A DNA stretch of 64,000 bases. It comes from a virus (lineage: Duplodnaviria; Caudoviricetes). This document shows, piece by piece, positions 1-51,507 of this stretch. Made by a program: the position numbers and the translations under genes. The stretch lies in the IMG/VR virus record IMGVR_UViG_3300035208_002098, positions 32,001 to 96,000 of that record. One strand, written 5' to 3'. Positions within the stretch are counted from its first letter, which is position 1, and each line of letters starts with the position of its first letter. The notes under the pieces were generated by a model. The model had not been told where the DNA came from. It was given only the letters and a program-made list of their open reading frames with translations, and made no database searches.

Positions 1-48
1 ACAATTATTATGGTTTTAAGAGCTGTTCAAACACATTTAACTGACAAG

Positions 49-84
49 GTGTAAAAATACCTTAATTTGAAACCTATTTACAAC
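49..84 (-). repeat. Solitary CRISPR-repeat-like unit, copy 1 (GTTGTAAATAGGTTTCAAATTAAGGTATTTTTACAC)
   Basis: Near-identical to copies at 20253, 20509 and 21493. Resembles Bacteroidota type II-C repeats (GTTGTG...TTTCAAATTAG...). Confidence 0.6.
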
Positions 85-118
85 TCACTAGACAGCACTC
101 TTTAATTTTAAATTTTAA

Positions 119-299
119 AAACAATCATAGTAATAGGATTTTAACCTATAAAACAGTTTTCATTAGTTTTTATACTGGGACATTTACGCCAGAGACTTAA
201 CTGAAAAGTCCGCTACTATTAGTTTCACCCTAGATTCATTTCAAATCTAAATTACACAATGGGATAGTGTCTTTACATTCCACCACACTATAATTGTTT
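119..299 (-). ncRNA. tRNA-shaped RNA with about 118-nt insert and extended acceptor stem
   Basis: Minus strand: TATAGTG-TG-GTG GAATGTAAAGA CAC ... ATAGG TTAAAAT CCTAT-TACTATG, stem extended by AAACAAT/ATTGTTT. Confidence 0.55.
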
Positions 300-560
300 A
301 TATTTTAAAATGATTGATAATCTGACTTCTTATGGCTACAAGATTGTATCAGCTTATGCTGTGTGATAGTATCAATCATTTATATTTTAAAATAGATTTT
401 GAAAGATATAGGCTTAGTCTCTTCATCCTTATTCTGGCGAGATACTGTGAGAGTTGAGTATTTCTACTACATTACTAACCATCGTACTTATCTAACTCAA
501 TAGACCTTTTCTTAATCTTCTCACGAAGATATTATCTATTTTATATTTTTTATTTTATTC

Positions 561-572
561 TGTCAATGAACT
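561..572 (-). promoter_or_regulatory. boxA-like antitermination motif AGTTCATTGACA
   Basis: Identical 12-mer at 20901-20912. Both lie 5' of ncRNA runs. Resembles rrn boxA (TGCTCTTTAACA in E. coli). Confidence 0.55.
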
Positions 573-592
573 TTGTACTTTTAACTACACTG

Positions 593-622
593 CAAAGATA
601 AAATTATTTTTAACATATGCAA
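593..622 (-). promoter_or_regulatory. Bacteroidota-type sigma-A promoter (TTG-N19-TATCTTTG). Representative of about 30 copies, e.g. near 2599, 4394, 9035, 10412, 13484, 15158, 18496, 21553, 22582, 23803, 27282, 30292, 33920, 43508, 47294, 53299, 59078, 61780, 63113
   Basis: Recurrent intergenic plus-strand CAAAGATA/CAAATATA with CAA about 19 nt further on, matching the -7 TAnnTTTG and -33 TTG consensus. Confidence 0.85.
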
Positions 623-639
623 GTATTTTAGATAAAAAA

Positions 640-939
640 TTATGGGTGTTTAAAATAAATTTTTTTAACTATTCTCCCATTTTCTTCCTTTTCTTTTTCG
701 TGTGATATATCTTGTAAATATTTATCGATAGCTAATTTAGCTTTCTCTAAAGAATAAAAATTATTCCTACCAAATATATCATCATTTAAATTTTCCCAAA
801 ATAAAAAATCTACTATAAAGAAGGTCCACCCAAATATAGGAATAGCGTATATAAACCAACTTACATCCGAACCTTTTTTTTGCGTTATATAAGTTTCTTT
901 ACCATCTTTGGTAATTTTTAAGACTATCCTTGTTTTCAT
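640..939 (-). CDS. Hypothetical membrane protein, paralog of 2645-2947
   Basis: Shared motifs MKTRI, PxFGW, AKxxIDKYL and C-terminal HP. Confidence 0.6.
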   Translation of the reverse strand: MKTRIVLKITKDGKETYITQKKGSDVSWFIYAIPIFGWTFFIVDFLFWENLNDDIFGRNNFYSLEKAKLAIDKYLQDISHEKEKEENGRIVKKIYFKHP

Positions 940-1115
940 TTATTAAAATGGTTTAAGCTTTTTGTTTTACTTTAATATCAAATACTTTAATATTTTGTTT
1001 AATAGTTGAATTACCACTATTAATAACTTTCTCAATATGTTCTTTGATTTGTGATTCATTAAAGTTAACCCAATCACTAACCACTTCAATTTCTATTTTA
1101 TATACTGATGCCATA

Positions 1116-4100
1116 TTATACTTTTTTCCAACCGCTTAATAATTTAGTTAATTCTTCGTTACTATAATTACTACGAAAATTAGCCATAATAAATTGTTTG
1201 TTATTATCCAATTTCATCAATAACAAATTATCTTCTATGAAAATATTAGTTATTTGGTTAACACCAGTTAAAAACTGTATTGGGTCATCATGGGAGTTTT
1301 CAACAAAGAAATGTCCTTGCCATTCAATCATGTCACCAATATGTACATTCACATATTTGGTTACACCATTTTCTTGTTCGAATTCATCATAGATTTTATC
1401 TATTTTAGACATAACAGCTTTAGGTTTGCCGTAAGCATCTTTGTCATCACGAAACATTTGTTTAGCTTGTTCTCTATTCATAATTATTTTAATAAGACAT
1501 TAATATATTCAGTTGCTTTTTCATACCCCCAAGCGTGAATTAATTTCTCATACTTAGTAACATCTTCATTGGGGAATAACGCTTCTGCAGATTCTTTTAT
1601 AATTGAATCACACCAATCGATACAAATAACACGTTTCCTCCAACCTATTTTGATTCTACCTTTTGTAGTAGTAACAACAAACCATGGTAAATGTTTTGAA
1701 TAATAACTATCATCATAACCATTTGGTATTTGTTCTACAAAGATAACTCTATCACCAAAACAATTAATAATACCAGTTTTTTCATTAATGGCATCTATTT
1801 TACTTTGAGGGTTAATACTAATAGTTTCAGCTTGGATAGATTCTATTAATCTACGTATATGATAATTAATATTAGCTTTATCAATTTCAGTAAATTCTCT
1901 ACCAACATCTAATAAAAGTTCTAAATCTATTGATTGATTAACACCAATTGTCTTAATTGTAATTACTGATTCTTTCATATTTTACGTTTTTTATAAACTT
2001 TAATAAAATGAACACACGATATTATACCTGATATTATGAAACAAGACCCACAAAAAAACTGCATAAACATTTTATTTGTTATATATAAGTCTACTAACCA
2101 AAGAATTGCACCTAATAACCATATAAGGGCTATATTTAAATTTACATTTCTCATATTATTTTTCGCTATAAATTAATAACCATAACGGATAACCAGATGA
2201 TGCATTCACAAATGGTACAACAGCTAGAAGTTTACATTTTTTCTTAGTATATTCTTTTAGGAAAATATCAATTTGGTCCATATCCATATTACCAAACGCT
2301 CCGGTACCCCAATCTTTACCTGTTGCTTTTTTAATAGCACCTTTATAATCACCATCCCAACCAACAAGTCTATCGGTATAAAGACTATTTATGTTAGCTT
2401 TTGGAAATTGTTTCTTTATTTGTTCGAAAACTTCCATGGTTTCTTCAGTAGTTATTTTAGTACCAATAGCATAGTTACTAGAATACATTCCTCTAAAGTC
2501 AAATGGGTATTTTATTAACCCATATTTAAGTGGGTGCACCGTAAAATATCCGTAGTCATAATTTATAAACATAATTTTTATATTTTAATATTATAATACA
2601 AAGATAAAACAAATAATTGTAACTACCAAATAAATAACTATAAATTATGGATGATTAATATAATATGTTTCACTTATTTTTTTACGAGCTTCTTCTTCTT
2701 TATCTTGGTTATAGCTAACTAAGTATTTATCAATCGTTTCTTTAGCTGTTTCAAGTGTATTGAATTTATTAGTGGCTCTTGAATAATATATGGTACTCCA
2801 AACATACTTATCGTATATGTAATGAATCCAACCAAATACTGGTACAAAATATTTAAATATATCGTCAGTATCTACATTATCTCGTGATTCGATAGTATAT
2901 GTTTTTACTGAATAAGGGTTAACATCAATTTTAATTCTTGTTTTCATATATTATTGTACTTTAAGCCATTCTTTAAGACATTTCTCAAATTCTTCTTCTA
3001 ATTCATCATCAGAGAATTCATTATTTTTATAAAAGTGAAAAGATTTACGACATATCGCTTCAATTTCTTTCATTGAAATAGATTTTTTAACTTTTGGTTT
3101 TTTAGGTACTTCCACACGTTTAAGTACTATTATCTCATCTGGCGAATCAGCATCACACAAACCGCCATCTTTACGATATTGGCTAATAGTAAATGATAGT
3201 GCCATTGTTTCGGTTAAGTCATATATGTATGTTGTGATTAGATAATCACTACCCATTTTTTATTTATTATCACCGTTCCAAACCATATCGAATAACCCAT
3301 TTAAATCTTTTTCATCCAATATGTCTTCGATTTCATCTTCCATATCAACATCAGTACCATGTTGAATTAACGCATCGAGTAAATCATTTTTTATATCATC
3401 CCAACATGTAATGGTATAAAGTTCTTCATAAGTATATTTTGCCATAATATTATTTTTTACGTTTTTTCTTTTTTGGTGTTATATTGGTTGGTTTATGTCT
3501 TACTTTACGTTTATAACCATCTTCATTATAATATAATGGGTCACGTACAATTATTTCGTTTGAATTACCATCTGTTTTAATAGTCCAACCTCTTGGTAAT
3601 TCTTTACCTTCGTATCTATCTCCTTCTGTCATACTGATTCACCCCACATTTTATTAAGTTTTTTCCAAAACACACCAATCTCATATAAAAATAAATCGGT
3701 TGTTTCTTGAACAGTTAAACCACCACTATCATTTGGCGTGTCTTCAATATTCAAATAAAAACCCATAGAATATCTGATATCATCCTCATATTTCCAATCG
3801 CCATTGTCTAAATCAATTTGTATTGATTCATCCCAATCTTCTGGTAATGTATGGTGATACCCAACAATTTCAATTGTAAATGATTCTGGTCCTCTATTAC
3901 AAAAAAACTCAATTAATTTGTTATCAGGGAAAACTTCATCAATTAACACACTATCAATTTGTCTATAACCATTTAGTTTTTTATAAGTTTTTATAAATGG
4001 TTTAATTAAATCTTCTATTTCTTTAGATGGAAATGGTAAATATTCATTTACGGTTTTTTTCTTACTCATAAGGATTATTTCAAAAATTCACCTTTAAACC

Positions 4101-5857
4101 ATTTTCGTTCAACACTATTTGGGTCTTGTAAATATTCTTTTAATGAATCTGTTAGTTTATCTATTGATTCAACTGCAAATTTTTGACACCCAACTCTAAC
4201 TACATACCCAAAATCTAATGATTCGATTTCAATAAATCTAGCTTTATTTGTTCTTGATTCTGCTTCAACCATAACTTCACCACCATTAGAACACTTTGGT
4301 TCATCAGGCAATGGACGTTCTGCCATAGGTCTTTCATCTAATACTTCATTCATACTTTTACTTGTTAAATTAATTTATATTATTTTTAAAGTACAAAGAT
4401 ATATAAACTATTTTATTATTTCAAGTTATGTTTTAGTTTTATTTCTTCAGTATTAATTAAAGTCTCTTTTCTTTTCCAATTATTATTTTCATCACCAACT
4501 CTATAAGAGAGATAAGTTATGTATGTTTTCTTAACCACTTTGTATGGATTAATTAAATTATCCTTAAACCATTGGAAAACATCTTCACGTTCTTTAGGTA
4601 TATAATAGGTTTTCCAACCTTCTTGGTGAGACACTAATATTTTTTCATCAAATTCTAAATATTCTTCAAAGCATTCACTAGCCGAAAACATATATGTCAT
4701 ATGCCACCACATTGAATCTTTCCCAGATAACTTTTCAGCCAATTTCCAAATAAAGTCATTAGCATCACGAGCTCTATCTCTATGTTGTAACAAAGTTTTT
4801 TTATCATCTAATCCGTATTTTTTTAACCGATATTCATCAGCGTAATAACGAACCCTAATAATATTATAATCAGTACATTTCATAATTTATTCAGTAAAAT
4901 ATTTAACATATCTATCAAATATTGCAACACATTCAGCTTTACAAGCTTCGATATCCTCTAATTTAAAGTATCTTTGTGTAATAATTTCGTATTCAACTTC
5001 ATTACCGCATTCACCAGTATATAATCTATCACCGGTTATTCCACGTCTATCAATTCTTAGCCAATCTAATGGAACATCTTTATTTCTATAAGAATAATTA
5101 CCATGTTCACCTTCAGATAATCCAACAGATAAAAATACTTGTCCTTTAAAGTCAACAGATATTCCTCGCCAATAATTATCGGCCTCTGGTTTTTCATATA
5201 GGTATTGTTCAATAAATTCCAATTTACCTAATTGTGTTTTTTTAAATTCCATATTATTCAATATTTGTGGTTTCATTTTTATCTTCAGGGCACCCATCTT
5301 CTTTCCATTCTTTAATATCATCCAATACCCATTTCACTAAATCTTTATGTTCTTCTAGAATTTTATGATTTTTAGCTAATATTTCAATAGCTTCGGGTGT
5401 ATCACCACCATTTTTATCAACTGGTAAAGACATTTGACCACCATGTTTTATAATTAGATAAGATTCTATTGTTACCTTAACTCTTACTTCTAATGGTATC
5501 CTTTTTAATATATCGGAAATCCTATTATTGTGTTCCATTTAATTTAATTATTAATGATTTTTTCTTAGACAGTTTTAATCGTGATAAACCTTCTAGAACT
5601 CTACGTACATATGGTATATTACATTCAAATATTTCATCAATTGATAAAAACGATAGTTTCTTAAATAACTCAATCTTATTATATATGAACTCACCAGTTT
5701 CATCATATGAAGTTACAACTAAATTAAGGTCATCAACTGTTAAATTATAGCCATTAAGTTTTAATTGTTTATTATTCATAGCAATCTTTATATCACTAGA
5801 ATATAAGCCATTAAGTCTTAATAATTTATCAATTGTTAATATATCAGTCGTTTCCAT
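1116..5857 (-). other. Block of tightly packed small hypothetical phage ORFs (1116-1481, 1484-1978, 2156-2572, 2951-3256, 3260-3445, 3450-3632, 3629-4069, 4075-4353, 4416-4883, 4887-~5250, 5254-5538, 5525-5857)
   Basis: Co-oriented abutting ORFs with AT-rich leaders. No recognisable motifs. Confidence 0.6.
2645..2947 (-). CDS. Hypothetical membrane protein, paralog of 640-939
   Basis: See 640-939. Confidence 0.6.
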   Translation of the reverse strand: MKTRIKIDVNPYSVKTYTIESRDNVDTDDIFKYFVPVFGWIHYIYDKYVWSTIYYSRATNKFNTLETAKETIDKYLVSYNQDKEEEARKKISETYYINHP

Positions 5858-5881
5858 TTATTTTAATTACTTTCTTTAATA

Positions 5882-6545
5882 CCATTAAGAATGAATTCAT
5901 CGTTCAATTAAACTTATTTATCTCTATGTAAGTCTCATCTTCTTGTTTCACTCTTACTTTACTTTTTAGGGGAGTAAACTCCTTGTCATCCATAATTGGT
6001 AAGTCCACAAGCGTATATTCGGACAAACGTTGCCCTATTTTATTTTCATTATATAATCTGTTACCTTCATACTCTATATTAATACTTGCATTAACATCCC
6101 TATCAATTTCTAACCCACAATTATCACACTTATATATCCTATCTGATAACTTTAAGTTATATTTGATGTTTCCACAACAACTACATTTCTTTGATGATGG
6201 ATACCATCTACTAACTAAAACCATTTCTCTACCATACCATTTAGACTTATATTCAATTTGTTTTCTCATTTCATATAAACCTAATTCAGCGATAGCTTTA
6301 CTTAATTTATGATTTATCATCATTCCACTAACATTTAAATCTTCTAATATAATTATTTGGTTCTCTTTAACTATTTTAGTTGTTATGTTATGAAGGTAAT
6401 CTAACCTCTGATTCTTTATTTTTTCATGTTTTCTGGCTAATTTTAATTTACTTTTATATCTATTATTACTACGACTATTGATAGTCCAATAAAAATGTTT
6501 CTTTTTTTCATATTTATAATTTATTAAATTTCTTCTAATATCCAA
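5882..6545 (-). mobile_element. tnpB: 5'-truncated TnpB element (C-terminal half only) with probable omega-RNA/right end
   Basis: IILEDLNV (RuvC-II), YPSSKKCSCCG...CDNCG zinc finger and DRDVNASINI (RuvC-III) are present, but there is no GIDLG RuvC-I or N-terminal HTH. 3' region CGCTTGTGGA...GAAACAAGAA, ending ...TTAATGG. Confidence 0.8.
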
Positions 6546-9500
6546 TCAGTTAATAATGTGTCAGCCATTACTTCATTATAAGCCCACGAACACTTTGTCC
6601 AGACAAACGTATCTTTAAATTGTTTATGAATCGTACCATCTTGAGCAACCCGTAATGTAAATTTCTGATATCCTTCTTTATCAGGATATCGTTTAGCATA
6701 TTTAAATGCTGATGAAAGACCATGGGTTGCTGTCTCATAAATTTTACCTCTTTTAGATACGTTAGAACCTCTATGTCTATGTGGTTGGTAGTATAACCCT
6801 GTGGGTACATGTTTTACTTTATATGGTTTCATTTTACTTCTAATTTATCTAATATTTCTATTTGAGCGTTGACTTTATTAAATAATTTACCGAATTCTAT
6901 CGGATAAGATAGTCTGTAGCCATCATCATCAAAAGCTTGTGATGCCATAAAATCATATAAATCAATTAAATCTTCTTTAGATTTAACTTCTGATAATCTT
7001 CGTTCAACAGAAGAAATAAATAAATTACTATATTCATCTTTAGTTGATGAACCTTTGGCCATTAGTAACCATATTCCACTTGAAAACATAAAGGATAAAA
7101 ATGTAATCATGGTTGTATCACCAAGTATGTTAAAAAATAGTAATATTAATGTAATTAATAACCCACTAACGAAAATAATTAAACCAATTGTTGACATTAC
7201 ATTTGAAAATTTATTTTCTGTCCAGTCATATTTTTTATTTTCCATAATTATTTCATTCTTTTTGAAGTTTCACCATTCCAATTATCTAATCTAGCGTAAT
7301 ATGGGAACATTTTATAAAACATTGCCCACACTCGTTTTGACCTATTTTTCTTTGGGTATCTAACTTTATGACAATTTTCACCACCACTACCAACATACGT
7401 ACCTTTATTATCCCTAGTTTCTTTTTCAGGACTTTGAGAATACACTAGACCACGTTTATATTTATTAGATTCTAAATTAATAAACATGTCACGAATACTA
7501 TCATATGTTAACCCAAGTTTAATACCTATATTATAAATTTCGAATACTTTATTAATAATAATAAGCTCTTCTTCAGCACCTTTATGATTAACTAAACCCG
7601 TTAATTCTATTTTACGTAGCTTAATATAATTAATATCTGTATGCCTTAAATAGCCACTATATCTAGGTTTATATAAATACTTATTCAGTAATTTCTTATA
7701 CTCTCTTAATTCTTTAGATTCTACCATAATATTCTAATATTGTTTATATTCACTTAAATCAAAACATTTTAAATTACCATCTTTATCCCACCCAACTTCG
7801 TGTCTACATCTACCAGCAAATAGTATCTGTTTCATACTCATTTTTCTTTCATCCCATTTAATTGGATTACAGAATTCTTGTTCGATAACATTACCATTAA
7901 GTTCTAAAGATGTTTTAGCTAATTTAGTACGATTTTCTTCTGATGATTTTCTCCACACCTCAAATTCCTCAAGGTTGTAATCTTTGTGGTCTTTTTCAAT
8001 TAAGAATTTAATGACTTTAGTTTTATCAGCATTAACAAACACATGGCGAGTTAACCCTGAATCCCAATATGCAAAAGCTTCACCATTATATAAAACAATA
8101 TCACTTGTTACATCTCGTTTTTTTTGTTCTAGTATTTGTTCTATTTTCATCTTTAAATTTTTTAATAACCTCTAATAATTTTTTATCTTCTTTTTCTCCA
8201 TAGAAATAAGATTCACTATAGTTTAATCTAGTAAGTATTTCTTCTAGTTTATCACCAAAATAATCGGCTTTAGTTTTTTCATACTTGTATGCTGCCTTAT
8301 CAGCTTTAATAGTAGCGTTTAAGATATCAATTTCACTTTGATGTTTAGTTTTATTTCGTTTGAAGTACCATCTAGCATTATTATGACTAGTATTTAACAT
8401 AGCTAGTTTAATATTTTCTATAAAGGTTATTAACGTAAAATCTTTAAAATAATTTTGTTTATCTCGTTCAAAAAAATATGTAGCATGGTCTTTAGATATA
8501 TCCATGTCATTTAAAAACTTAGTTATTAAACCAGTTACTTCTGAATCATCAGTACCTTGTTCATATACAAATACATCAACTACTTTAATAAATAATTCTG
8601 GGTCTGTATTTTCAAAATAGTCTTGGACTAGTTTTTGAATTTGTTGTATATCACTCATAATACTTAATTTATTATATAATGTTCTATATCTAACGTTTCA
8701 TAATATTCAGCTTTTAGTGCTGAGATTTTTCTATCTAGTTCATCAGTATATTCTATGGTATGTTCTTTAAACCATTTAGAAGAAATTAAAGCATTGAAAT
8801 CGAAGTTATATAATAAACAATCAATTGCATCTTCGGCTTCACTAGTTTTAATAAAATTACCAATACCACCAACCCAAATACATTCTTTACCAGCCACAAT
8901 GCATTTGCCAGTGTCTAATAATTTTCTTGCAATACCTTCCCATCCGGCATATTCATCATTTTTGAAAAAATGTAATAACAAGTATTCTTTTTGATAATGA
9001 GTTAATTTCATATTATTATATTTTAATTATAATACAAAGATATAACAAAGTTTTTACAATTCCAAATATTTTATGGTAAATCTTCTATTCTAGATTCAAT
9101 TAATTTAAATTTCCTAACACCACATACTATAACGTCACAATTAAAATCAGTTGATATATTAATACAAGAATTTGAATTATGGCCAATTAGATATATATTC
9201 ATTGAGCTACCAGTATATTGGTAAGTATCCGTTATAGTCTCTACATCACCATTAGTATATGTCACATTTAGTGTATAATGATATAAATGTTTTTGTTTTT
9301 TTGTCGAACAAGATAGTAAAATAATTAGTATGGTTATTAAATATATTATTTTTTTCATTTATTGTAGGAATATATAATTTAACTTTGATTTATATAAATC
9401 ACCATCTATTTTAAAGAAAAAATCTGATGTGTATATACCAATATAATTCCCAAAATCTTTAATTTGACTAACATTATTAGGCAAATAGATTGTGTTTTCA

Positions 9501-10958: not shown

Positions 10959-10959
10959 A

Positions 10960-11415: not shown

Positions 11416-11416
11416 A

Positions 11417-11944: not shown

Positions 11945-11948
11945 AATT

Positions 11949-12164
11949 TTATTGTTTATAATTTTTAGGTATATAATTGTAATATGTAAGAACACCTATT
12001 AACCAATAAATGTTTAAATCTGTACTATAGATTGTACTGCCTTCTTCATTTTTAACTTCGTAATGGTTATTTAAAATCATTACAGAGCACAATTCATTAA
12101 TGTAGCAATTATCACCACATTCTTTTAAGCCATTTTTTATTAAAAAGTTTTTTACTATATCCAT
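11949..12164 (-). CDS. Hypothetical protein
   Basis: ORF abutting the downstream gene. Confidence 0.5.
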   Translation of the reverse strand: MDIVKNFLIKNGLKECGDNCYINELCSVMILNNHYEVKNEEGSTIYSTDLNIYWLIGVLTYYNYIPKNYKQ

Positions 12165-12246
12165 TTTAAAAAGTATTTTCTATTTTTTTATAATTCCATA
12201 AACATAATCTACACATATCCACTTGATAATTAAATTTTTATGTTCT

Positions 12247-13479
12247 TCAACTAGTGGTGTACTTTTTGTGCCTATCAATGTCGCTTTCCATGTGAACTAT
12301 ATCTATCTCTTTAGGTATAGATACTTCGGAAGTCAATACTCCTACTAACGTAGGCAGCTCGTTCCGATTTTTAAGTCTAAGTTCCTTAGACAAGTTTATT
12401 AATGCGAATGATTTGATATTGTTGCTTGCTAACAAGTCTCTATTGTGTGTTGTATGACAAGATTGACAAGTCCAAATTCTATCACTAAGTTTTAATTCTT
12501 TGTTTACCACACCACAAGTGCACATTCTACTACTTGGTTCAAATTGACCTATACGTAATTGATTACAACCATACCACTCAGATTTATAATCAAGCATTTC
12601 ATTGAATTTGCCAATAGCAATATCTGATAATGCTTGAGCAAGTTTATGATTCTTAATCATATTACTTGGTTTTAGTGTTTCAAGGCAAATAGTATCATAA
12701 TTTGTAGTTAAGTAATGACTTATTTTGTGCAAGAAATCCTCACGTTTATTAGCAACTTGTTCATGTAACAAAGCTATTCTTTCTTTTGTTCTTTTACCTT
12801 TAAATCTTGAATATTTACTTTGAGTGTATTTTAATTTACTCATAGCTTTTTTAAGATATTTAGGGTTTTCAATTTCTATCCCATTAGATAATACAGCAAA
12901 TGTTTTAATTCCTAAATCAATTCCAATAGCTTGGTTTTCACTAATTGGTTTCTTGGTAGGTATTTCTTCATTAACTTCTACTAATATAGAAATATAATAC
13001 TTCCCAGTAGGTGTTTTACTGATTGTAGATGTTTTTATAATTCCGTCAAAAACTCTATGTAATTTTACTCTTATCCCTTTTTTGAATTTAGGTATGTGTA
13101 TTTCTTCGTTACACAAGTCAATTTTTGTATGTTGTGGTATACTGAAAGATTGTGAATTATTGTGCTTTGATTTGAAGTTAGGGAATCCTTTTTTATCTCT
13201 AAAGAATTTAGTAAATGCGTTGTCTAAATTTTCTAAAGCTGATTGTAATGTTTGTGAATTAACTTCTTTCAACCAACAAGTGGCTTCATTATTTTTAAGA
13301 ATAGGTAAATTCTTTTGAATATCAAATCGACTAATAGTTTTCTTATCTAACTGATATGATTTAACTTTAAGGTCTAACCCATAATTGTAAATATAACGGC
13401 TACAACCAATGTGCATAGCAATTAGCTGCTTTTGTTCTTTGGTTGGATATAGACGATATTTATAAGCTTTATAAATCAT
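12247..13479 (-). CDS. tnpB: RNA-guided nuclease TnpB (IS200/IS605 OrfB), catalytic triad intact
   Basis: KAYKYRLYP HTH, GIDLGIK (D), ICLETL (E), CTCG...CQSC, RDLLASNNI (D). Start inferred at MIYKAY. Confidence 0.95.
   Translation of the reverse strand: MIYKAYKYRLYPTKEQKQLIAMHIGCSRYIYNYGLDLKVKSYQLDKKTISRFDIQKNLPILKNNEATCWLKEVNSQTLQSALENLDNAFTKFFRDKKGFPNFKSKHNNSQSFSIPQHTKIDLCNEEIHIPKFKKGIRVKLHRVFDGIIKTSTISKTPTGKYYISILVEVNEEIPTKKPISENQAIGIDLGIKTFAVLSNGIEIENPKYLKKAMSKLKYTQSKYSRFKGKRTKERIALLHEQVANKREDFLHKISHYLTTNYDTICLETLKPSNMIKNHKLAQALSDIAIGKFNEMLDYKSEWYGCNQLRIGQFEPSSRMCTCGVVNKELKLSDRIWTCQSCHTTHNRDLLASNNIKSFALINLSKELRLKNRNELPTLVGVLTSEVSIPKEIDIVHMESDIDRHKKYTTS
12292..12400 (-). ncRNA. Probable TnpB omega-RNA scaffold / right end, ending GTTCAC at 12292
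   Basis: Hairpins CCTAC-GTTA-GTAGG and TATCTAT..ATAGATA followed by TTCAC, typical of IS605-family right ends. Confidence 0.55.
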
Positions 13480-14041
13480 AATGCAAATATACAAATAATT
13501 TTTGTATAAACCAAGTTTTTTTAGTTAATAATTGTTTTATTCTTACATCATGATTAAAACAAAAACGATAACCATTTACCTCATTAAGTTCTATTAATTT
13601 AATATCAGCTACCTCATCTTTTTCAGAATTATTAGTGTTAAATTCATTAATCATTTGAAATAAAGTTTCTTTCGAAGTTATTATATCAAACTGATAATAT
13701 AATGTAACATTTTGTTTATTAGTTATTTTTTCAGTAATAACAAATTTTGGTTGTTCATTATATTTAAAATCATATTTATCAATGTCTAACCCAGTTTCTT
13801 CATATATTTCCCTTTTAGCTGCATTAGCACCAGATTCATCCCAATCTAAATACCCACAAGGTAAATTCCAATACCCTTGAAAATCTGGTGTACCGGTTCC
13901 ACGTTTATTAATCAATACATATGACTTATTTTTAACTTTCACATTAACTAAAGCAACAACAGCAACACTTCTTGATATCCAATATTCTATACCATCTGAT
14001 ATGATACATTTATTTGGTGTGTTATTAAATTTCTTTCCCAT
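13469..14041 (-). CDS. NUDIX hydrolase
   Basis: GYLDWDESGANAAKREIYEETGL Nudix box. Confidence 0.9.
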   Translation of the reverse strand: MGKKFNNTPNKCIISDGIEYWISRSVAVVALVNVKVKNKSYVLINKRGTGTPDFQGYWNLPCGYLDWDESGANAAKREIYEETGLDIDKYDFKYNEQPKFVITEKITNKQNVTLYYQFDIITSKETLFQMINEFNTNNSEKDEVADIKLIELNEVNGYRFCFNHDVRIKQLLTKKTWFIQKLFVYLHYDL

Positions 14042-14409
14042 TATTGATTTAATTTAACTAATAATTCATTATATTCATCTTCAGTACCAACAAAATGAAT
14101 GTAAAACTCATTTGTTTTATCGGTATGGTCTGAAATGTCATGTTCTATCCAACCTTGCTGTTTCATTAATAGCGTTAATGCTCTCACACTTTCTAACCTT
14201 AATTTATCGTTTGTGTAATATTCAATCATTAATTGGGCGTTATCAATACCATATTGTATATAATCATCGTTTTTAAATATCGGTGAATTTTTAGTGGTTG
14301 ATTCATGTAATTTACCTAATTGGTAAGAAAAGAAATCACGTAATTCAGATTTTTCTAATCCAATATGTACTTCATTATCTTTCATATTATTCAGTTTTAT
14401 TTGTTTCAA
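14041..14409 (-). CDS. Hypothetical protein
   Basis: Overlapping operon ORF. Confidence 0.5.
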   Translation of the reverse strand: MKQIKLNNMKDNEVHIGLEKSELRDFFSYQLGKLHESTTKNSPIFKNDDYIQYGIDNAQLMIEYYTNDKLRLESVRALTLLMKQQGWIEHDISDHTDKTNEFYIHFVGTEDEYNELLVKLNQ

Positions 14410-14992
14410 AAATTATTGATGTATTACACGTGATTACTTGGCTTTTAATATCTTTTTCAGTACAAATAACATACGATGCGTATTTTATTAAATCATTGTG
14501 TGATGATTGATGTGAACTAATTGCATCGAATCGTGCTTGATTATCACCATCACGTTTCATAACTCTATTATACCTAATTAATAAATCATTCTTTTCATCA
14601 TATGATGCTATAACTGATATTACTTTATCAAATCGTTTATCTAAACCAACCTCTAACCCTTGTGCACATTCAACTATAATATACGGACTTGTTTGTTGAG
14701 AATACCAATAGTTTAATTCACCAAAAATTAATTTACCCATGAAATGTTGTATGGTATCCCTCTTATATTTATTTTTGAAGAATATATCTAAATATTTATG
14801 GTTTAATTTATAATTATCGGTAAAACAATCATGTCCAAGTACATCACGATACATATTTTGAACTGATTCATTAGTTAGTAATAAATTTCTATTAACGGTA
14901 TCAAAGTTAAATATAGGTATACCAAGCTCTTCAAATATTTTTGAAACTGTTGTTTTACCAGCACCAATACCACCAACTAATAATACTTTCAT
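14387..14992 (-). CDS. coaE: Dephospho-CoA kinase
   Basis: GGIGAGKTTVS P-loop, LGIPIFNFD, IIVE, RVMKRDG, ISSHQ. Confidence 0.85.
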   Translation of the reverse strand: MKVLLVGGIGAGKTTVSKIFEELGIPIFNFDTVNRNLLLTNESVQNMYRDVLGHDCFTDNYKLNHKYLDIFFKNKYKRDTIQHFMGKLIFGELNYWYSQQTSPYIIVECAQGLEVGLDKRFDKVISVIASYDEKNDLLIRYNRVMKRDGDNQARFDAISSHQSSHNDLIKYASYVICTEKDIKSQVITCNTSIIFETNKTE

Positions 14993-15207
14993 TTATTGTA
15001 AACTTTTCATGTTTTCTCGTTCAACACCTCTACGAAATTGTTTGTCTTTTTCACAAGTGAATTTTTCGTAAACTTTTATTACGGCACCATCTAATGTTAC
15101 CACTGCTTTGTTTTCTTCGAATTTAGTTTTATACTTTTTCATATTAAATATTTTTTACAAAGTTACTTTATTTATTTCTATTTTTCAAGGTATTAATAAA
15201 ATATAAT

Positions 15208-18200
15208 TTAATTTACTATTAAAATCCCATTTTCAACTGTAAATTGATTATATATTAATATAACATTATTAAACTCTATCATAGCAAAATCATTCACATA
15301 ACTTTCTTCACTAATATCATATCGTGTTACGATTATTTTTAAAGGATTTACAGCTCTTTCATCATCTGATATAAGTTGAATACATTTATATTTATATTGG
15401 CGTTCTAACGCTTTATTTTTAAATAAATAATTTATTGCGTTTATAACACTTTGTATTCTAATATCATTACATCTAACGTTAATACATTCATCATTAAATT
15501 TATTTAAGTTATAAATACTAGACATTATATTTATAGGAACCAAAAAATATCCGGGTATATCAATTTCTTCGTACTGTCGTTCACGTAAATTACCTTGTGG
15601 CATCATAACAAATTGGTTACGATTATTCAGTTCATTAAAATGTTTATTAACGATAGCTTGATAATGGGGATAAGAAATAGTAACAGTAAAAATTGGTATA
15701 TATTCCACAAAGCAATTTATTATAACCCATTACCTTTAACTAACTTAAAGATAACACCACATTTATTACATGAGCGTGAATCACTAGTTTTATAACTATG
15801 ATATCCGGGTCCTAAAACACCATTATTTTCATAAGTACTATTATCAGATATATTTTTAGATTTACAAACCGGACATTTAATAACTAATTTTGGTTCTTCT
15901 TTTTTAATACGATTATCAATTTTTAAATTATCTGGGTTAGAAAAATATTCATTAATAGTCGTTGCTGCCGATACTGGGTCATAATCTTTTGTATAAAAGC
16001 TTTTTTCTATTAATTCTAGTGGAATAAGTTTATCTAAAGCACTTGGTATTTTACCAATAAATGGTTTACCAATAGTACGTTCAATCGGTTCTATTTTTTT
16101 CTTTGACATAATTAATATCGATAATTGTTATTATTAAAATTATTTGTGTCCATATCTGCATCAAACTCATTAGTAACAGCCCAATAGAATATACCTACAC
16201 AAGCTAAGAATACTAATATATAGACTATTACAGCATTCCCACGCATTTTAAATATTCGTGATACTGCATCAATTACTGTATACCCATCACGCATTACTTT
16301 AGAACAAATTAATACGTTACCATTACCTTTTTTCGGATATTGTTTTGGTGATTCATTTGTTATGTTTGGCATCCAAAGAATTAAATCCATGTTCATTTCA
16401 TGTGGTAAACTATCTAATGTACCACCATTAATCACTTCAGTTATTTCTAATTGATTTGCTATTTTAGTAACTACTGACGAACTCTTTGGTTCATCACCAA
16501 AATTACCACCTACAATTAAAGTTTGTATATTTTTATTTATTACCATTGTATTGAGAATGAGATTAAACCATGTATTTTTTTGAATGAAAAGAATTTCTCT
16601 TTTGGTTTACTAAATTGTTTATGATAGTTAATTAGACGTAACCACATTTGGAAATCTTCTTTTTCTTTAACCGTTAATTTACTATTTAATGTTTCAAAGA
16701 TATCTCTAGTTATTTTAGAATCATTTGAAACCGTAATTAATTGTGATGCGTTAAATTGTTCCATTATCATATTTTTTAAATAATTCTTTTAATTTAATAT
16801 TGGTATTTGACTGACATCTATCAAACATGTCATCAATAGAACTACTAATTTCTCGTTTAAATTCAATTATTTGTCCATAATACACAGTGTATGTAAAAGA
16901 TAATGACAATTTAAATGAATATTCATCATAGATTAAACCACCGCTTACTTCGCTAAAATAAAATATAATACCATTGGATTGTAATCTAATAAGATATTCC
17001 TTTATTCCGTGTAATAAATACTGTGTGTATTTATTTGGGTCCAAAATTCTATTTATAAAATTAATATTAACTTCATCAATAATCTTATCAATACCAGTAT
17101 CAACTTTATTATATTCATCTAAGTTTGAATTACTTATGTAACACCTACCTTGATTACTTATTTTAATTGCTAAATCAATCATGTTTTATTTATGTTTTAA
17201 TAATTCTGGGTTTTGATGAATATTACCAACCACAATAACATATGATTTAAGTGGAACTAATTTATATTCTCTTATTTGTTTACCATGATTATATTTAGAA
17301 CCATTTCTAGTACAAAAACAACCATTATAGAATATAACCTCACAATTAATTGTAGTACCGTTATTACCATCTTTACAAGCAACTATATCACCATCATAAA
17401 TTTTAGTACCTTTACGGTCATCAACACCAGTATACTGACCTAATGTTTGATAAAGTATATCAGTAAATTGGTTAAATTGGTCACCACAAGGGTCTGACAT
17501 TGTTGGGTTTGTTTGTATAAACTCTACAATTTGATGACAACATTTAGCTGCGTTATAATGTGGGTAACCATAATGCCACGCACCATCATTTAAACCCCGA
17601 TAGTCAATTTCTCTTTTCATTATTTCCAAGAATATTTAATTTTAAAATCCCAATCACCGATAAAACGTTTTCTAAATACTTGTTTAGCTTTTTGTATTAC
17701 ATCTTCTGGTGTGTCAAATCTATATGTTGGTTCATCAACATCATAATCTTCAAATCTTTTAGCATGTAATGTTTTATCTGATTGTGTAATCATTCTATTA
17801 AGTTCAATAGTCCAATTTACCCAACCAATTGGAAAATCACCATCCGCAAATGTATTCCATGTTTTACCATCAGTACCTTCAAATTCTACATCAGCACCCT
17901 CAAAGGTAAGTTTACCATAATAATGGATTGCATCACCAGATATACCACGATATGAAGTTATGTTAAGAGTAACTTTTCTTTTTGTGTTTTTACGTACACT
18001 TTCTAAACTAGCTGTGTATACTCTTTCACCTTTAGTAAATTGGTCACCATGTTTTACTGAATGGTAATCAATTGTATCAGGAGCATTTTCTTTTGAATCG
18101 TCACCAAATATAACTCTTTTCTTAAAATAGATAATAATCTCATCATCACCATCTAATATTTCAACATTATCAAAATCTTTCTCTTCCTCAACTTCTTTGA

Positions 18201-19314
18201 TAACTTCAACTGATTTTTGATTTTCATCATATAATAATTCACCGGTTATTTTATTAACCCAATAATAATTAAAATAATCGTCTTCATCTGGTTCATCGTG
18301 TTCTTTAACGATATATTCAGTGCCATCTTCATCCCAAACAGTTACTACAATAGCGTTTTGATTTCTATTTTTAATAGCATCGATTAAATCAATACCAGTA
18401 ATAACACTTTCAACGCCTCTGTGATGTAAGTACATTGCGTATCGACATTTATATGATTTATTAGACATAATATATTATTTTAAATTAAACATATGCAAAG
18501 ATAAATAAAATAAATGATAATACCAAATATATTATGATTTATTTTTTAATTTACGTTTTTGGCCATGATATTCAATACCTTTAAAACTATTTTTATCAAA
18601 ACCATGTGATTCAATTTTAATTAAATCAGTGATTTCTTCTTTTTTTAATTTTATTTCTTCATCGGTTAGGAAAGAATATTGTTTTTCATATCGAGCCCAT
18701 TTTTTATATCGTCTGTCATTTAATTGTTTACGGTGTCTATCTTCTCGTTTAAGACGATGATATTCTTTATCGTTAACATCATCAAAATGTTTCCAAAAAC
18801 CACTTACAACTATTCTAGCCCAACGTCTAGGATTATCACGCCAAGTTAAATTGTTTTTAATTTCACCAGTTTCATTATGATGATAACCTTCAGCATAATC
18901 ATATGATTCGAATGTTACACCATTACTAGTATCTTTTTTACGTTTACGATATCTTTTTTTATATTCAGGATTTATTTGGATGTTACCTTTATCATCAACA
19001 ATGTACTCGCTTGGATAGCTAGAATATCCCCAGCTTTGGTGTTGGTTAAAGTTATCTAGAAATTCATATTGTTCATAAACTTTAACTTGATTACAATAAT
19101 AACTAAAGGCTTTATCAAATGATTTACCTAAGAATTTTTTAATAACTCTTTCTGCTTTAACCCAAGGGTAATCACTTTTTTCACTTCTATAATGTGGATG
19201 GTCAAAACGTGGTAAATCCCACATATCACCATATTTTCTAGTAATATAAGCTTTTCTACCTTCTTTGAATGGAAGAGTTTCTAATATTTCAATATGTTGT
19301 TCCATGTAATACAT
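15208..19314 (-). other. Block of hypothetical ORFs (15208-15708, 15720-16109 zinc-ribbon, 16112-16546, 16540-16770, 16751-17182, 17620-18468, 18532-19314)
   Basis: Co-oriented ORFs. 15720 has CPVC..CNKC. Confidence 0.6.
17186..17629 (-). CDS. YopX-family phage protein
   Basis: REIDYRG, TLGQYTGVDDRKGTKIYDGDIV, VVGNIHQNPELL. Confidence 0.85.
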   Translation of the reverse strand: MEIMKREIDYRGLNDGAWHYGYPHYNAAKCCHQIVEFIQTNPTMSDPCGDQFNQFTDILYQTLGQYTGVDDRKGTKIYDGDIVACKDGNNGTTINCEVIFYNGCFCTRNGSKYNHGKQIREYKLVPLKSYVIVVGNIHQNPELLKHK

Positions 19315-19328
19315 TATTATAAATAGAT

Positions 19329-19353
19329 AAAAAAAATGGTAGCTTACCTACCA
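19329..19353 (-). terminator. Intrinsic terminator closing the ncRNA cluster
   Basis: TGGTAG-GTAAG-CTACCA followed by T7 on the minus strand. Confidence 0.6.
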
Positions 19354-19438
19354 GCACGAGTCTGAAACGCTCCGAGTGTCTACCCAGCCACACCGGTCTC
19401 CAACCAGTTGTCTATCAGGTACTTAATTGTGGCAATCG

Positions 19439-19570
19439 TGGGGGAACAGGCATCGAACCTGTATTTACACTTTGGACTGTCGTGCAATTATTACGCATTT
19501 CGTGGCACCATTCTGTCCTAGACTCGGCTTATCCATACGTTATAGTGTCTACCAATTCCACCATCTCCCC
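19439..19570 (-). ncRNA. tRNA-shaped RNA with about 82-nt insert
   Basis: GGGGAGA-TG-GTG GAATTGGTAGA CAC...ACAGG TTCGATG CCTGT-TCCCCC. Confidence 0.6.
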
Positions 19571-19675
19571 AAATGTAGTCTTTTCCTACAGTCAACGTTA
19601 ACCTATTGCAGTCTAAACGTATGTGAGTTCCTCCGATTTGAAAGGTGTCGCTTAACTCATTCGTGCATATCCTTG

Positions 19676-19803
19676 TAGGATGAATAGGATTCGAACCTAT
19701 AATGTGTTGCCCGTAAGACGCTTGGTTGCGGAGCAGTGCTATTTCACAACGCTTACTCTATTACTCTCTCAGGACTCGTGTATACCAATTCCACCACCAC
19801 CCT
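19676..19803 (-). ncRNA. tRNA-shaped RNA with about 77-nt insert
   Basis: AGGGTGG/TCATCCT acceptor, GTG GAATTGGTATA CAC D-arm, ATAGG TTCGAAT CCTAT T-arm. Confidence 0.65.
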
Positions 19804-20026
19804 ATTTTGCTTTACATTGAGATTACATATAAAGTCTAGTTATTATCGGTTTTCTTTCTTTCAATAAACCTGCCACACTTCTGTTGTTTAAAAAAGTCAA
19901 ACTACTTGGAGCCTCTGTTACCTAGCTTTTATTCCCAACGAAACTGGCGTTTAAGGATGTCCAGTTCAATACCCTACCCATTGTTATAAGTCTTGGGTTA
20001 AAGACCACTTGTACCTCTTACAATTG

Positions 20027-20097
20027 TGCTGCGAATAGGACTCGAACCTACATCCTGAAGTATTTCCCTCCCTGTTCTACCATTAAACTACCGCATC
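20027..20097 (-). tRNA. Degenerate tRNA (non-canonical anticodon loop GGAAATA)
   Basis: Normal-length cloverleaf with GTTT AATGGTA GAAC and GTAGG TTCGAGT CCTAT, but lacks U33 and has stem mismatches. Confidence 0.5.
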
Positions 20098-20252
20098 ATT
20101 GTTGACTCGACTTTAGCCCAGTCTTTTATATAAGCATATAGGTTATATATCTTATATGGCTACCTAGAATTATGTCTAGCTCACATCTAGGGGACTCAAC
20201 CTTTACACTTGAATCAGAGGTGGTTGGTACTATTCATTATGTGTTAGAGACA

Positions 20253-20294
20253 GTTGTTTTAAAAATATATCTTAATTTGAAATCTATTTACAAC
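20253..20294 (-). repeat. Solitary CRISPR-repeat-like unit, copy 2
   Basis: Plus strand GTTGTTTTAAAAATATATCTTAATTTGAAATCTATTTACAAC (42 nt, GTTG/CAAC ends). Confidence 0.6.
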
Positions 20295-20508
20295 CCATTC
20301 CACCACATCACCATTTAATCTTTAAAAATACTACATCTGGTTAAGTGTTCGCCTCCACTGTTCACCAATTATTGAGTGCCTTACTGTAAAAGTAGGTGAC
20401 CCATTTTACACCCCCGATATCGGTAAACGACCTCCTAATCAGGTTAATATAGTATAAAGTTTTAAAAAGAATCATTATGTTTAGGTTTTTGTTACTATTA
20501 ATTAGAGT

Positions 20509-20550
20509 GTTGTTTTCAAAATATACCTTAATTTCAAACCTATTTACAAC
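20509..20550 (-). repeat. Solitary CRISPR-repeat-like unit, copy 3
   Basis: Plus strand GTTGTTTTCAAAATATACCTTAATTTCAAACCTATTTACAAC (42 nt). Confidence 0.6.
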
Positions 20551-20900
20551 GATACTCCCCTTTCGGCATGTAACTCGCTCAACCATGCATAAGATTCTCT
20601 ATATTTTAAAAACCATTAGTCTTGTGATGAATAAACTTCAATGTGCGGTGGGTAGCAAACTCGGCTTCTTTTCAGATAACTTATACTGTTTATATTGTCA
20701 CTAACATGAATCACAACTTCATATATAATAAGTAGTTCTTGCATACTATTTGGTTGGTATGTAGGCTGAAAGCCAGCTTTAGCAACGCTCTTATTATTGT
20801 TAGCTCCAATCTAATGGTTAATATTTAAAAGGGGTTACTCAATGGAACACTATATATTTGTCATAGCTCTTATCACTGTATTAACTTCACCCCAATTTTA

Positions 20901-20912
20901 TGTCAATGAACT
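20901..20912 (-). promoter_or_regulatory. boxA-like motif AGTTCATTGACA, second copy
   Basis: Identical to 561-572. Confidence 0.55.
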
Positions 20913-20917
20913 AATTG

Positions 20918-21050
20918 TGCCCGTAGGAGGACTCGAACCTCCATGGTTTTGTTTTATATCATCACGTTAATGACTTTATTATAAACCGTATCCCACGTTC
21001 AAGGCTTGCAATCCCATCCTGTGTAGCTTTACCAATTTGCTTATACGGGC
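20918..21050 (-). ncRNA. tRNA-shaped RNA with about 82-nt insert
   Basis: Perfect GCCCGTA/TACGGGC acceptor, AGC AAATTGGTAAA GCT D-arm, GGAGG TTCGAGT CCTCC T-arm. Confidence 0.7.
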
Positions 21051-21061
21051 ATTTATTTTGA

Positions 21062-21167
21062 TGGTCTATTAGGATTCGAACCTAAGTAAATGCTACCATC
21101 AGAGCTTATCCCTACTCTCACATTTACTTTCTACTCTCCATTCCCAGTTGATAGTTCGTGCACAGAC
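21062..21167 (-). ncRNA. T-arm-containing structured RNA ending in ACCA
   Basis: TTAGG TTCGAAT CCTAA TAGACCA at the 3' end, GTCTG 5' end, internal AAGTAAATG/CATTTACTT stem. Confidence 0.45.
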
Positions 21168-21195
21168 AAATCAACCTTCTGTAGATATACACCCA

Positions 21196-21441
21196 TTATT
21201 TAATAGGTAGTTTATTTAAATATTCTATTAAACCACCAACGTTTTTAATTGCTTCAGCATCTTCATCAGAAATATTTACTTTAAGCTCCTTTTCTATACG
21301 CATTACTAATTCTATACCATCAATACTATCGAAACCTAAATCATTATAGAAATCGGCATTATCAACAATATCTTCTAATTCAAGGCCACTATAATCAAGT
21401 ATAATACCCCTAACTTTTTTTCCTAATTCTTCTTTATTCAT
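21196..21441 (-). CDS. acpP: Acyl carrier protein
   Basis: Acidic 81 aa, DLGFDSIDGIELVMRIEKEL...ISDEDAEAI with the phosphopantetheine Ser. Confidence 0.9.
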   Translation of the reverse strand: MNKEELGKKVRGIILDYSGLELEDIVDNADFYNDLGFDSIDGIELVMRIEKELKVNISDEDAEAIKNVGGLIEYLNKLPIK

Positions 21442-21492
21442 ATTAAATTTACATTCTTCAATTAACTCATCACATATTTTTGTCGCTTTAAA

Positions 21493-21530
21493 TTTTCAAA
21501 ATATACCTTAATTTGAAATCTCTTTACAAC
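21493..21530 (-). repeat. Solitary CRISPR-repeat-like unit, copy 4
   Basis: Plus strand TTTTCAAAATATACCTTAATTTGAAATCTCTTTACAAC, 22 nt from the promoter box at 21553-21560. Confidence 0.6.
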
Positions 21531-21600
21531 TGCATTATGTTTGATTATAATGCAAAGATAATATAAAAAATTAACATATTCAAGTAAAACGGTAAATATT

Positions 21601-51503: not shown

Positions 51504-51507
51504 AACT

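Follow-up and report, generated by a model that had tools for sequence, protein, structure and literature searches.

The stretch of DNA analysed here (hereafter the window) comprises 64,000 nucleotides (nt), bases 32001–96000 of a 248-kb virus record from IMG/VR (IMGVR_UViG_3300035208_002098, labelled G000), and contains four solitary repeats of the type found in clustered regularly interspaced short palindromic repeat (CRISPR) arrays; these four copies, a fifth one located elsewhere in the record and a CRISPR-IscB cassette of the same phage are the subject of this study. The 28-nt pattern GTTGTAAAKAGRTTTSAAATTAAGRTAT has exactly four matches in the window, all on the minus strand (57–84, 20267–20294, 20523–20550 and 21503–21530), and none of 100 dinucleotide-preserving shuffles contained a match. 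Since nearly every gene of the window, whose G+C content is approximately 28%, is also located on the minus strand, the copies are in the transcribed orientation. The 28 nt are common to all four copies, while 38–42 nt are shared by the three copies at 20253–20294, 20509–20550 and 21493–21530, two of which end in ACAAC and thus form a unit with GTTGT...ACAAC ends. Alignment of the flanks and self-BLAST of both regions confined the likeness to the element itself, the flanks being unrelated, and no minus-strand open reading frame (ORF) of at least 80 amino acids (aa) overlaps any copy in the window. The first-pass annotation, which had described four dispersed solitary repeats in the transcribed orientation, in non-coding DNA and with unrelated flanks, is therefore borne out by the exact pattern, the shuffles, the alignment, self-BLAST and the ORF check.

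The copy at 49–84, s1, consists of the core at 57–84 and a 3' extension, TTTTACAC, at 49–56; it lies inside a non-coding RNA (ncRNA) operon between units resembling transfer RNA (tRNA), the one that follows it being outside the window, and is preceded on its 5' side by an AU-rich linker and then a 17-nt unique stretch, AGAGTGCTGTCTAGTGA. Both s2 (20253–20294, core 20267–20294) and s3 (20509–20550, core 20523–20550) have the 42-nt form, the latter with the GTTGT...ACAAC ends; the 5' side of s2 is made up of an AU linker and 18 nt resembling the 5' end of a tRNA-Leu (GGTGATGTGGTGGAATGG), and that of s3 of a small hairpin and a 16-nt stretch, CCGAAAGGGGAGTATC. We also considered s2 as a repeat inserted into a tRNA, which was rejected because removal of the repeat restores no detectable tRNA. 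The fourth copy, s4 (21493–21530, core 21503–21530), is located within the 5' leader of an acyl-carrier-protein gene, and the intervals between s4, s3 and s2, approximately 940 nt and 214 nt, are filled with a gene and ncRNA.

A relaxed search of the whole 248-kb record returned the four copies of the window, the repeats of the array described below and a fifth solitary copy, s0 (G000 1975–2001), which has a 1-nt deletion, lies about 30 kb away outside the window and is placed between two intrinsic terminators, one of which directly follows the repeat; no further match was found in the record at up to six mismatches. All five solitary copies and all nine array repeats are on the minus strand, as are nearly all ORFs and all of the approximately 53 tRNA genes of the genome. 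The phage region carrying the copies was found in three other assemblies, 99.96–100% identical over the region compared, and thus does not represent an assembly artefact. Samples containing the phage are ERZ27247350, SRR6484787, SRR18595299 and JGI 3300014204. Contig k141_18716 of ENA ERZ27247350 (228,409 bp; pieces L225, L227 and L229) overlaps the left end of the record and extends approximately 209 kb further, so that the phage genome must exceed the 248-kb record by a considerable amount.

The cassette is located on the same strand as the solitary copies (G000 27628–25279, minus strand), about 4.5 kb before the start of the window, with the array and iscB spanning approximately 4.5–6.7 kb before it, and consists, in this order, of a Bacteroidota-type promoter, a boxA-like motif, the array, a HEARO/omegaRNA with an anti-repeat, and iscB. 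The array includes nine 36-nt repeats (GTTGTAAATGGGTTTCAAAATAAGGTATTAAACAAC), the last of which is degenerate, and eight spacers of 29–30 nt; the iscB ORF encodes 472 aa with a PLMP motif and the Pfam domains RRXRR and HNH. The RNA of the cassette matches the Rfam family RF02033 HEARO (IscB omegaRNA) with 57 bits and an E value of 3.7e-10, with the 5' stem missing. In place of this stem are found ATACCTTATTTTTAAAAT, a small hairpin and GATTACAAT, which are complementary to the 3' half and to the 5' end of the repeat, the anti-repeat sequence being ATACCTTAATTTGAAA. Because of this complementarity to the ends of the repeat the cassette is, judging by its sequence, a CRISPR-associated IscB with a split guide resembling that formed by a CRISPR RNA (crRNA) and a trans-activating CRISPR RNA (tracrRNA). 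The earlier statement that there are no cas genes and no regular spacing thus holds inside the window but not for the record as a whole, which contains a regular array of a repeat identical at 26 of 28 positions, together with iscB. The solitary copies themselves lie 4.5–26 kb from the array and lack a regular repeat-spacer spacing beside an effector gene. Neither the 248-kb record nor the 29 kb past its left end on the ENA contig yielded a second IscB or omegaRNA. The phage also has a gene for a second kind of RNA-guided nuclease, since a 415-aa TnpB-type protein with HTH_OrfB_IS605, OrfB_IS605 and Cas12f1-like TNB domains is encoded at 12247–13494 of the window (minus strand).

Each solitary copy differs from the core consensus of the group at 0–2 positions, and this consensus is identical to the array repeat at 26 of 28 positions (26–28 of 28 for individual copies compared with the array repeat family). 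All five solitary copies have A10 and T20, the main array repeat G10 and A20, and some repeats of the phage's own array keep A10; in s2, s3 and s4 the ACAAC end is furthermore preceded by a derived insertion of 6 nt, common to these copies and absent from the array repeat. The block kept in all copies coincides exactly with the 28-nt segment for which RNAcofold predicts pairing with the omegaRNA, in a duplex composed of a 7-bp P1 stem and an approximately 16-bp arm of hairpin 1. When pairing is expressed as RNAcofold binding energy, determined in silico, the array repeat reaches −14.3 kcal/mol with its own anti-repeat, s3 −15.0 kcal/mol (the best of all copies), s0, s1 and s4 −10.7 to −10.8 kcal/mol, s2 −4.6 kcal/mol, and shuffled sequence about −5 ± 2 kcal/mol. 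Four copies (s0, s1, s3 and s4) accordingly pair with the anti-repeat far better than the shuffles do, and with the same P1 and hairpin-1 geometry as the array repeat; in s3 the sole change, C16G, produces a G-U pair and thereby better pairing.

The closest relative of the IscB that was fetched, a protein 74% identical to it, is encoded on a 1.9-kb Logan contig (L014; SRR15035646), where the array repeat has the A10/T20 form of the solitary copies (…AATAGATTTCAAATTAAGG…) and the anti-repeat has co-varied at position 20. With this anti-repeat s1 and s4 reach −11.0 kcal/mol, equal to the cognate repeat, s0 −10.1 and s2 −8.7 kcal/mol, whereas the array repeat of the phage studied here reaches merely −7.1 kcal/mol and s3 pairs poorly. 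Overall, it is very likely that the solitary copies belong, as repeat units, to the IscB-CRISPR family of the phage itself and can pair with the omegaRNA of its cassette.

One further complementarity was observed in the window: the messenger RNA (mRNA) strand of the ORF at 48274–48615 (minus strand; no Pfam match) contains ATACCTTATTTTCAAA (48485–48470), the complement of the 3' half of the array repeat with one mismatch, and, approximately 80 nt downstream in the same mRNA, TGCATTATGTTT (48390–48379), which is complementary to the 12 nt immediately 5' of s4. The arrangement of these two segments fits antiparallel pairing with the s4 RNA, with a rough chance estimate, made post hoc, of about 0.003.

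A different partner had been proposed in the first-pass annotation, which regarded the copies as crRNA mimics that titrate or redirect the type II-C tracrRNA/Cas9 of a Bacteroidota host, with sequence variants covering different hosts. Its account of Bacteroidota Cas9-type repeats was correct: a loose-motif scan of one genome per species gave dozens of Bacteroidota arrays with a period of 76–77 (37 in the first 80 loci alone), which carry the 47-nt repeat GTTGTGATTTGCTTTCAAATTAGTATCTTTG...ACAAC and occur in Bacteroides, Phocaeicola, Prevotellaceae, Chitinophagaceae, Belliella and others. The solitary copies agree with this repeat at 18 of the first 22 nt and then in TAT.TTTGAA and the ACAAC end, with indels, so the phage repeat can be placed in the same broad family as the Bacteroidota II-C repeats, with a loose fit. 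Besides this family-level resemblance, a host-directed mimic would be consistent with the 42-nt solitary form being nearer to the II-C repeat in its 3' part than the array repeat of the phage is, and with the host probably being a Bacteroidota bacterium, as the promoter type suggests. Pairing with a host-type tracrRNA was modelled with one convincing candidate, found in Bacteroides faecis (L042) approximately 6.4 kb from the II-C array of that species, in which the anti-repeat ACTAATTTGAAGCAAATC is followed by a structured tail and a terminator. Binding of the cognate repeat to this anti-repeat is predicted at −25.2 kcal/mol, that of the solitary copies at only −6.0 to −10.5 kcal/mol and that of shuffles at −3 to −5 kcal/mol, as compared with −10.7 to −15.0 kcal/mol for four of the five copies with the omegaRNA of the phage, a far closer partner within the phage itself. 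Furthermore, no spacer against the phage was present in 120 fetched loci, mostly Bacteroidota arrays. The weak pairing and the absence of such spacers make the decoy of a host tracrRNA the least supported of the RNA-level readings, and one that we hold to be very unlikely. Coverage of different hosts likewise found no support, the variants matching instead the array repeat of the IscB system of a related phage.

The surroundings of the copies bear on how they may be expressed. Bacteroidota promoters follow the consensus TTG-N19-21-TAnnTTTG, to which 87 sites on the minus strand and 23 on the plus strand correspond. One such promoter, TTG-N20-TATCTTTG, heads the s1 ncRNA operon (593–622, minus strand) and closely resembles the promoter of the array leader, another is situated upstream of s4 (21553–21583, minus strand) with its −7 box ending 22 nt before the repeat, and a third heads the CRISPR array; those of s4 and of the array are the only two among the 87 promoter-like minus-strand sites that read TATCTTTGCAnTATAAT. 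Given the usual distance from a Bacteroides −7 box to the transcription start, the s4 transcript would begin approximately 17–18 nt before the repeat. A boxA-like 11-mer, GTTCATTGACA, occurs just downstream of the s1-operon promoter (561–571), likewise after the array promoter (G000 27572–27582), and a second time in the window at 20901–20911, inside the s4-s3-s2 operon just after an insert-bearing tRNA-like gene. With G000 101987–101997 and 110956–110966 it has five copies in the genome, all on the minus strand, distributed among the array leader, both repeat-bearing ncRNA operons and the leaders of two tRNA blocks. The shared 11-mer suggests a common antitermination or regulatory class of long untranslated operons, and the shared promoter type and 11-mer together would place the solitary copies in untranslated units of the regulatory class to which the array belongs.

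Between s4 and the ncRNA/tRNA block lies the acyl carrier protein-like ORF (21196–21441, minus strand; 81 aa, PP-binding domain), and s3 and s2 are within a 1.9-kb ORF-poor block of tRNA and tRNA-like genes, closed by an intrinsic-terminator-like hairpin with a T-run (19337–19353, minus strand). The same transcription unit includes a tRNA gene approximately 170 nt downstream of s2 (20027–20097, minus strand). Two insert-bearing tRNA-like matches of approximately 130 nt, with inserts of about 45–60 nt, are found at 19676–19803 and 20918–21050 (minus strand); according to ARAGORN one of these two and G000 51438–51571 are intron-bearing tRNAs. Elsewhere in the window, at 61270–61343 (minus strand), there is a tRNA with the anticodon CUA (amber suppressor type).

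With an RNA unit or gene downstream of each copy, the element could alternatively be a DNA signal that starts transcription of the ncRNA, tRNA or acyl-carrier-protein gene following it, as in II-C arrays: Bacteroidota II-C repeats contain a perfect TTG-N19-TATCTTTG, s1–s4 carry TTG-N21-TA..TTT with seven of the eight positions of the −7 box, and a sigma-70-type scan flags s2, s3 and s4 (TTGTAA-N18-TATATT, 9/12). Matches of 9/12 are, however, common in this AT-rich DNA (18 observed compared with 10.9 expected), the 87 exact minus-strand matches to the consensus include no solitary copy, and the −7-like segment is the least conserved part of the element whereas the 21-nt 'spacer' is the most conserved. 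In addition, s0 is directly followed by a terminator, and a consensus promoter is already present 22 nt before s4. We therefore consider a primary function as promoter highly unlikely, while a weakened repeat-internal promoter may be retained, in view of the perfect consensus inside the Bacteroidota II-C repeats.

As regards function, our preferred explanation, which is plausible but held with somewhat less than even confidence, is that the five copies are orphan crRNA-type units supplying fixed guides to the phage's own IscB. They would be transcribed as parts of tRNA/ncRNA operons or of a 5' leader, the repeat part of each would pair with the tracr-like omegaRNA and, after processing, the 15–18 nt on the 5' side would serve as a fixed guide for IscB. 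The result would be hard-wired guide-RNA genes outside the array, a natural counterpart of engineered tRNA-guide RNA (tRNA-gRNA) arrays. In all five copies 15–18 nt separate the repeat from a preceding AU linker, terminator T-run, hairpin or predicted transcription start, a regularity noticed after the fact. A 16-nt guide is given for DelIscB, a characterised CRISPR-associated IscB, in the excerpted text of PMC12660989, and a uniform stretch of 15–18 nt is what fixed crRNAs would be expected to show, whereas decoys would have no need of one.

The flank of s0 is clearly non-random in its sequence: it is the exact antisense of the 11-nt motif GTCAAATTAAT, which follows 21 promoters of an early gene cluster. 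At these promoters TATCTTT(G/A) and 4 nt precede the motif on the transcribed strand of a cluster of small genes; it follows the −7 box at seven promoters in G000 1–8300 and at 14 in the next approximately 13 kb, on the ENA contig of the same phage. The sole antisense copies of GTCAAATTAAT are in two 15-mers flanking the hairpin upstream of s0, one of which abuts the repeat. An extended form of the proposal appears rather doubtful: guides of about 16 nt, hard-wired in an mRNA leader and in tRNA/ncRNA operons, would be released by ordinary RNA processing and by a 5' end set by the promoter, and at least one of them (that of s0) would act as a timing switch directed against early promoters of the phage itself. 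If this form is true, it would represent a natural tRNA-gRNA array and a first case in which a virus programs a Cas9-ancestor of its own by means of guides that are fixed and not acquired.

A number of results weigh against a supply of guides by the solitary copies. Used as a DNA guide, the s0 flank would have mismatches in the four repeat-proximal (seed) positions of its promoter targets, which is not how Cas9-type seeds work. The check suggested in the first-pass annotation, a search for targets of the 5' flanks, found none for s1–s4 in the phage, the fetched loci or the Bacteroidota genomes searched: s1 and s3 have no repeat-anchored seed of at least 10 nt elsewhere in the phage, s2 and s4 have only short phage matches (for s4 two of 12 nt, in coding DNA), no target of any 5' flank was present in the fetched loci, the s1 flank found nothing in 401 Bacteroidota genomes, and the s2 flank had no match with fewer than two mismatches in three Bacteroidales genomes. 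Matches of the s3 flank in the 401 genomes fall in the conserved 'PKGEYR' coding motif of FGE-sulfatase-type genes and were rejected as chance. Pairing is not uniformly favourable either, in that s2, at −4.6 kcal/mol, does no better than the shuffles, the T20 of all five copies mispairs with the phage's own anti-repeat, and array repeat and anti-repeat have co-varied at position 20. Local RNA folds of the four window units place the repeat within weak hairpins with no significant z-score. Finally, intermediate relatives were not found, the distant ones lacking the element and the other copies of the locus being 99.96–100% identical.

If the units do function as guides, IscB would draw its guides from fixed genes dispersed among RNA operons, a point of relevance to the origin of arrays and tracrRNAs from one-piece omegaRNAs, and functional units could also suggest compact ways of expressing IscB guides.

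The deviation at positions 10 and 20 can also be interpreted in terms of decoys or sponges comparable to the viral RNA anti-CRISPRs (Racrs), that is, guideless units that occupy omegaRNA and IscB and either disarm the IscB of a co-infecting related phage or throttle the phage's own in time. The A10/T20 form of all five copies is the array repeat form of the L014 relative and not of the phage's own array, s1 and s4 pair with the L014 anti-repeat as well as its cognate repeat does (−11.0 kcal/mol), and the copies are in operons that are likely to be highly expressed; s0 is merely a repeat with a terminator, the layout of Racrs as presented in the excerpted text of PMC10651486. On the other hand, the Racrs reported in that text mimic repeats of the host, whereas the mimic here matches a phage-borne system, and such decoys would load the phage's own IscB too, since all but one of the five copies pair with the anti-repeat of the phage. 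The s3 copy pairs best with this anti-repeat and poorly with that of the relative, A10/T20 may simply be ancestral, as some repeats of the phage's own array keep A10, only one relative is known, on a contig of 1.9 kb, and the uniform 15–18-nt unique stretch before each repeat is not predicted. We regard decoys as rather unlikely; should the copies function in this way, related phages would jam each other's IscB systems with RNA. Either functional outcome would indicate a wider role of RNA-guided nucleases in phage-phage and phage-host conflict.

Searches for relatives were made with several queries. Exact and degenerate repeat patterns and an omegaRNA-core pattern gave only chance matches in coding DNA in IMG/VR and JGI metagenomes, and a 22-nt Francisella match (L138), also in coding DNA, was discarded as an artefact of the pattern used. 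With iscB alone as query no relatives were found in IMG/VR, while an iscB alignment query led to 47 viral loci, only one of them with an array. This locus (L181, positions 2486–4950 of an IMG/VR record of 675,678 bp, very large and viral or proviral) contains an iscB of 529 aa, an eight-repeat array (GTTGTGTATTGCTTTCAATTGATTGGGTAACTCAGT, 30-nt spacers) and an omegaRNA-like sequence in an order unlike that of the phage described here, with iscB first, then the array and then the omegaRNA-like sequence, and no solitary copies were present in the record at up to three mismatches. Relatives of the acyl-carrier-protein gene belonged only to the same phage, contigs reached through a neighbouring 282-aa protein contained neither the operon nor the repeat, the ORF at 18532–19314 as query found nothing, and no GenBank phage matched the ncRNA region. 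Among the other minus-strand genes of the window are ones of the nicotinamide adenine dinucleotide (NAD)-salvage type, namely a ribose-phosphate pyrophosphokinase, a nicotinamide/nicotinate phosphoribosyltransferase and a NUDIX protein (42450–43475, 45676–47259 and 51508–52443).

The lack of solitary copies in the record of L181, a more distant giant-phage iscB-array-omegaRNA locus, is in line with a third possibility, according to which the copies are relics or by-products: the operons would have arisen by duplication and recombination of the leader-repeat module of the array, and the repeats would now have no role, or at most that of cis sites at which RNase III cleaves the polycistronic RNA once the omegaRNA has paired. 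The promoter and short leader of s4 resemble the array leader (TACTTG-N20-TATCTTTGCAnTATAAT, then ...ACATAATG) and have the look of a cut-down copy of it; s4, s3 and s2 all point the same way behind a single promoter of the array type, as in an array with cargo in place of its spacers; the derived 6-nt insertion shared by s2–s4 indicates that these copies descend from one another; and no targets of the flanks were found. Neutral remnants of this size would nevertheless be expected to blur in a genome of 28% G+C, whereas here precisely the omegaRNA-pairing segment of 28 nt has been kept in all five copies, with 0–2 changes each in spite of unrelated flanks, and the one change in s3 even improves pairing with the phage's own anti-repeat. 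It is therefore quite unlikely that the copies are relics, although in that case they would be a record of a CRISPR leader-repeat module recycled into tRNA/ncRNA operons.

In comparison with previously described systems, solitary repeats and crRNA-like RNAs in viruses are already known, but copies that lie within tRNA/ncRNA operons and are cognate to an IscB encoded by the virus are not described in PMC11656645, in bioRxiv 10.1101/2024.10.29.618823 or in the excerpted texts of PMC10651486 and PMC12660989. CRISPR-associated IscB with a split guide RNA goes back to Altae-Tran et al. 2021, as cited in the excerpted text of PMC12660989 on DelIscB, and the phage cassette, with its array, ncRNA with an anti-repeat and compact IscB, is of this kind. 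In the systems described there the guides are drawn from the adjacent array only, and dispersed single repeats are not mentioned in that text.

Viral CRISPR mini-arrays act in virus-virus competition, with spacers of normal length and the Cas proteins of the host (PMC11656645). The copies studied here are similar to them in being repeats carried by a virus, few in spacers and remote from cas genes, with s4, s3 and s2 behind one leader-type promoter, but a gene and ncRNA fill the intervals between them (approximately 940 and 214 nt), and it is the phage that encodes the effector.

Features common to the solitary copies and the Bacteroidota II-C repeats are the GTTGT start, the TTTCAAATTA core, the TAT.TTTGAA segment and the ACAAC end. 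They differ from those repeats in their length (36–42 rather than 47 nt), at four of the first 22 positions, by indels and in an imperfect −7 box (7/8 at best), and also in being solitary rather than in an array, in the absence of cas9 from the part of the record searched and in weak tracrRNA pairing.

Certain crRNA-like RNAs are known to regulate rather than to destroy: in the Francisella scaRNA and the long tracrRNA of S. pyogenes a degenerate or single repeat and a short guide direct a Cas effector without causing cleavage. Further examples of crRNA-like regulatory RNAs are CreR/CreA of hosts and Cracr of viruses, the types surveyed for Cracr being V-A, I-F, I-E, I-C and I-B and not type II or IscB (bioRxiv 10.1101/2024.10.29.618823). 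The s0 flank resembles such RNAs in its complementarity to a motif at 21 phage promoters, whereas they rely on a seed match (approximately 9–11 nt or more) proximal to the protospacer adjacent motif, while the match of s0 is offset by four mismatched repeat-proximal bases and s1–s4 have no detectable target.

The placement of s1 and s2 between tRNA-like units with AU-rich linkers is similar, as a functional analogy only, to that of guides in tRNA-gRNA arrays; Xie et al. in 2015 reportedly engineered polycistronic arrays of this type, in which guides located between tRNAs are freed by tRNA processing.

The closest parallel in layout is provided by Racrs, the viral solitary repeat units of Camara-Wilpert et al. 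2023 (PMC10651486), which according to the excerpted text copy the repeat of the host and poison its Cas complexes, the tests described there concerning types I-C, I-E, I-F and V-A only. Like Racrs, the copies are single repeats in a viral genome, away from cas genes and with promoters nearby, s0 being a repeat with a terminator; in relation to the distance of about 250 bp within which a promoter is sought for Racrs in the same text, s4 has one at 22 nt and the other copies are in promoter-headed operons. Unlike Racrs, they are embedded in tRNA/ncRNA operons and an mRNA leader rather than forming separate small genes, and the array, tracr-like RNA and nuclease to which they correspond are those of the phage itself or of a sister phage. 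Viral solitary repeats are currently read as weapons against host Cas systems, whereas here the cognate repeat, the tracr-like RNA and the nuclease are the virus's own.

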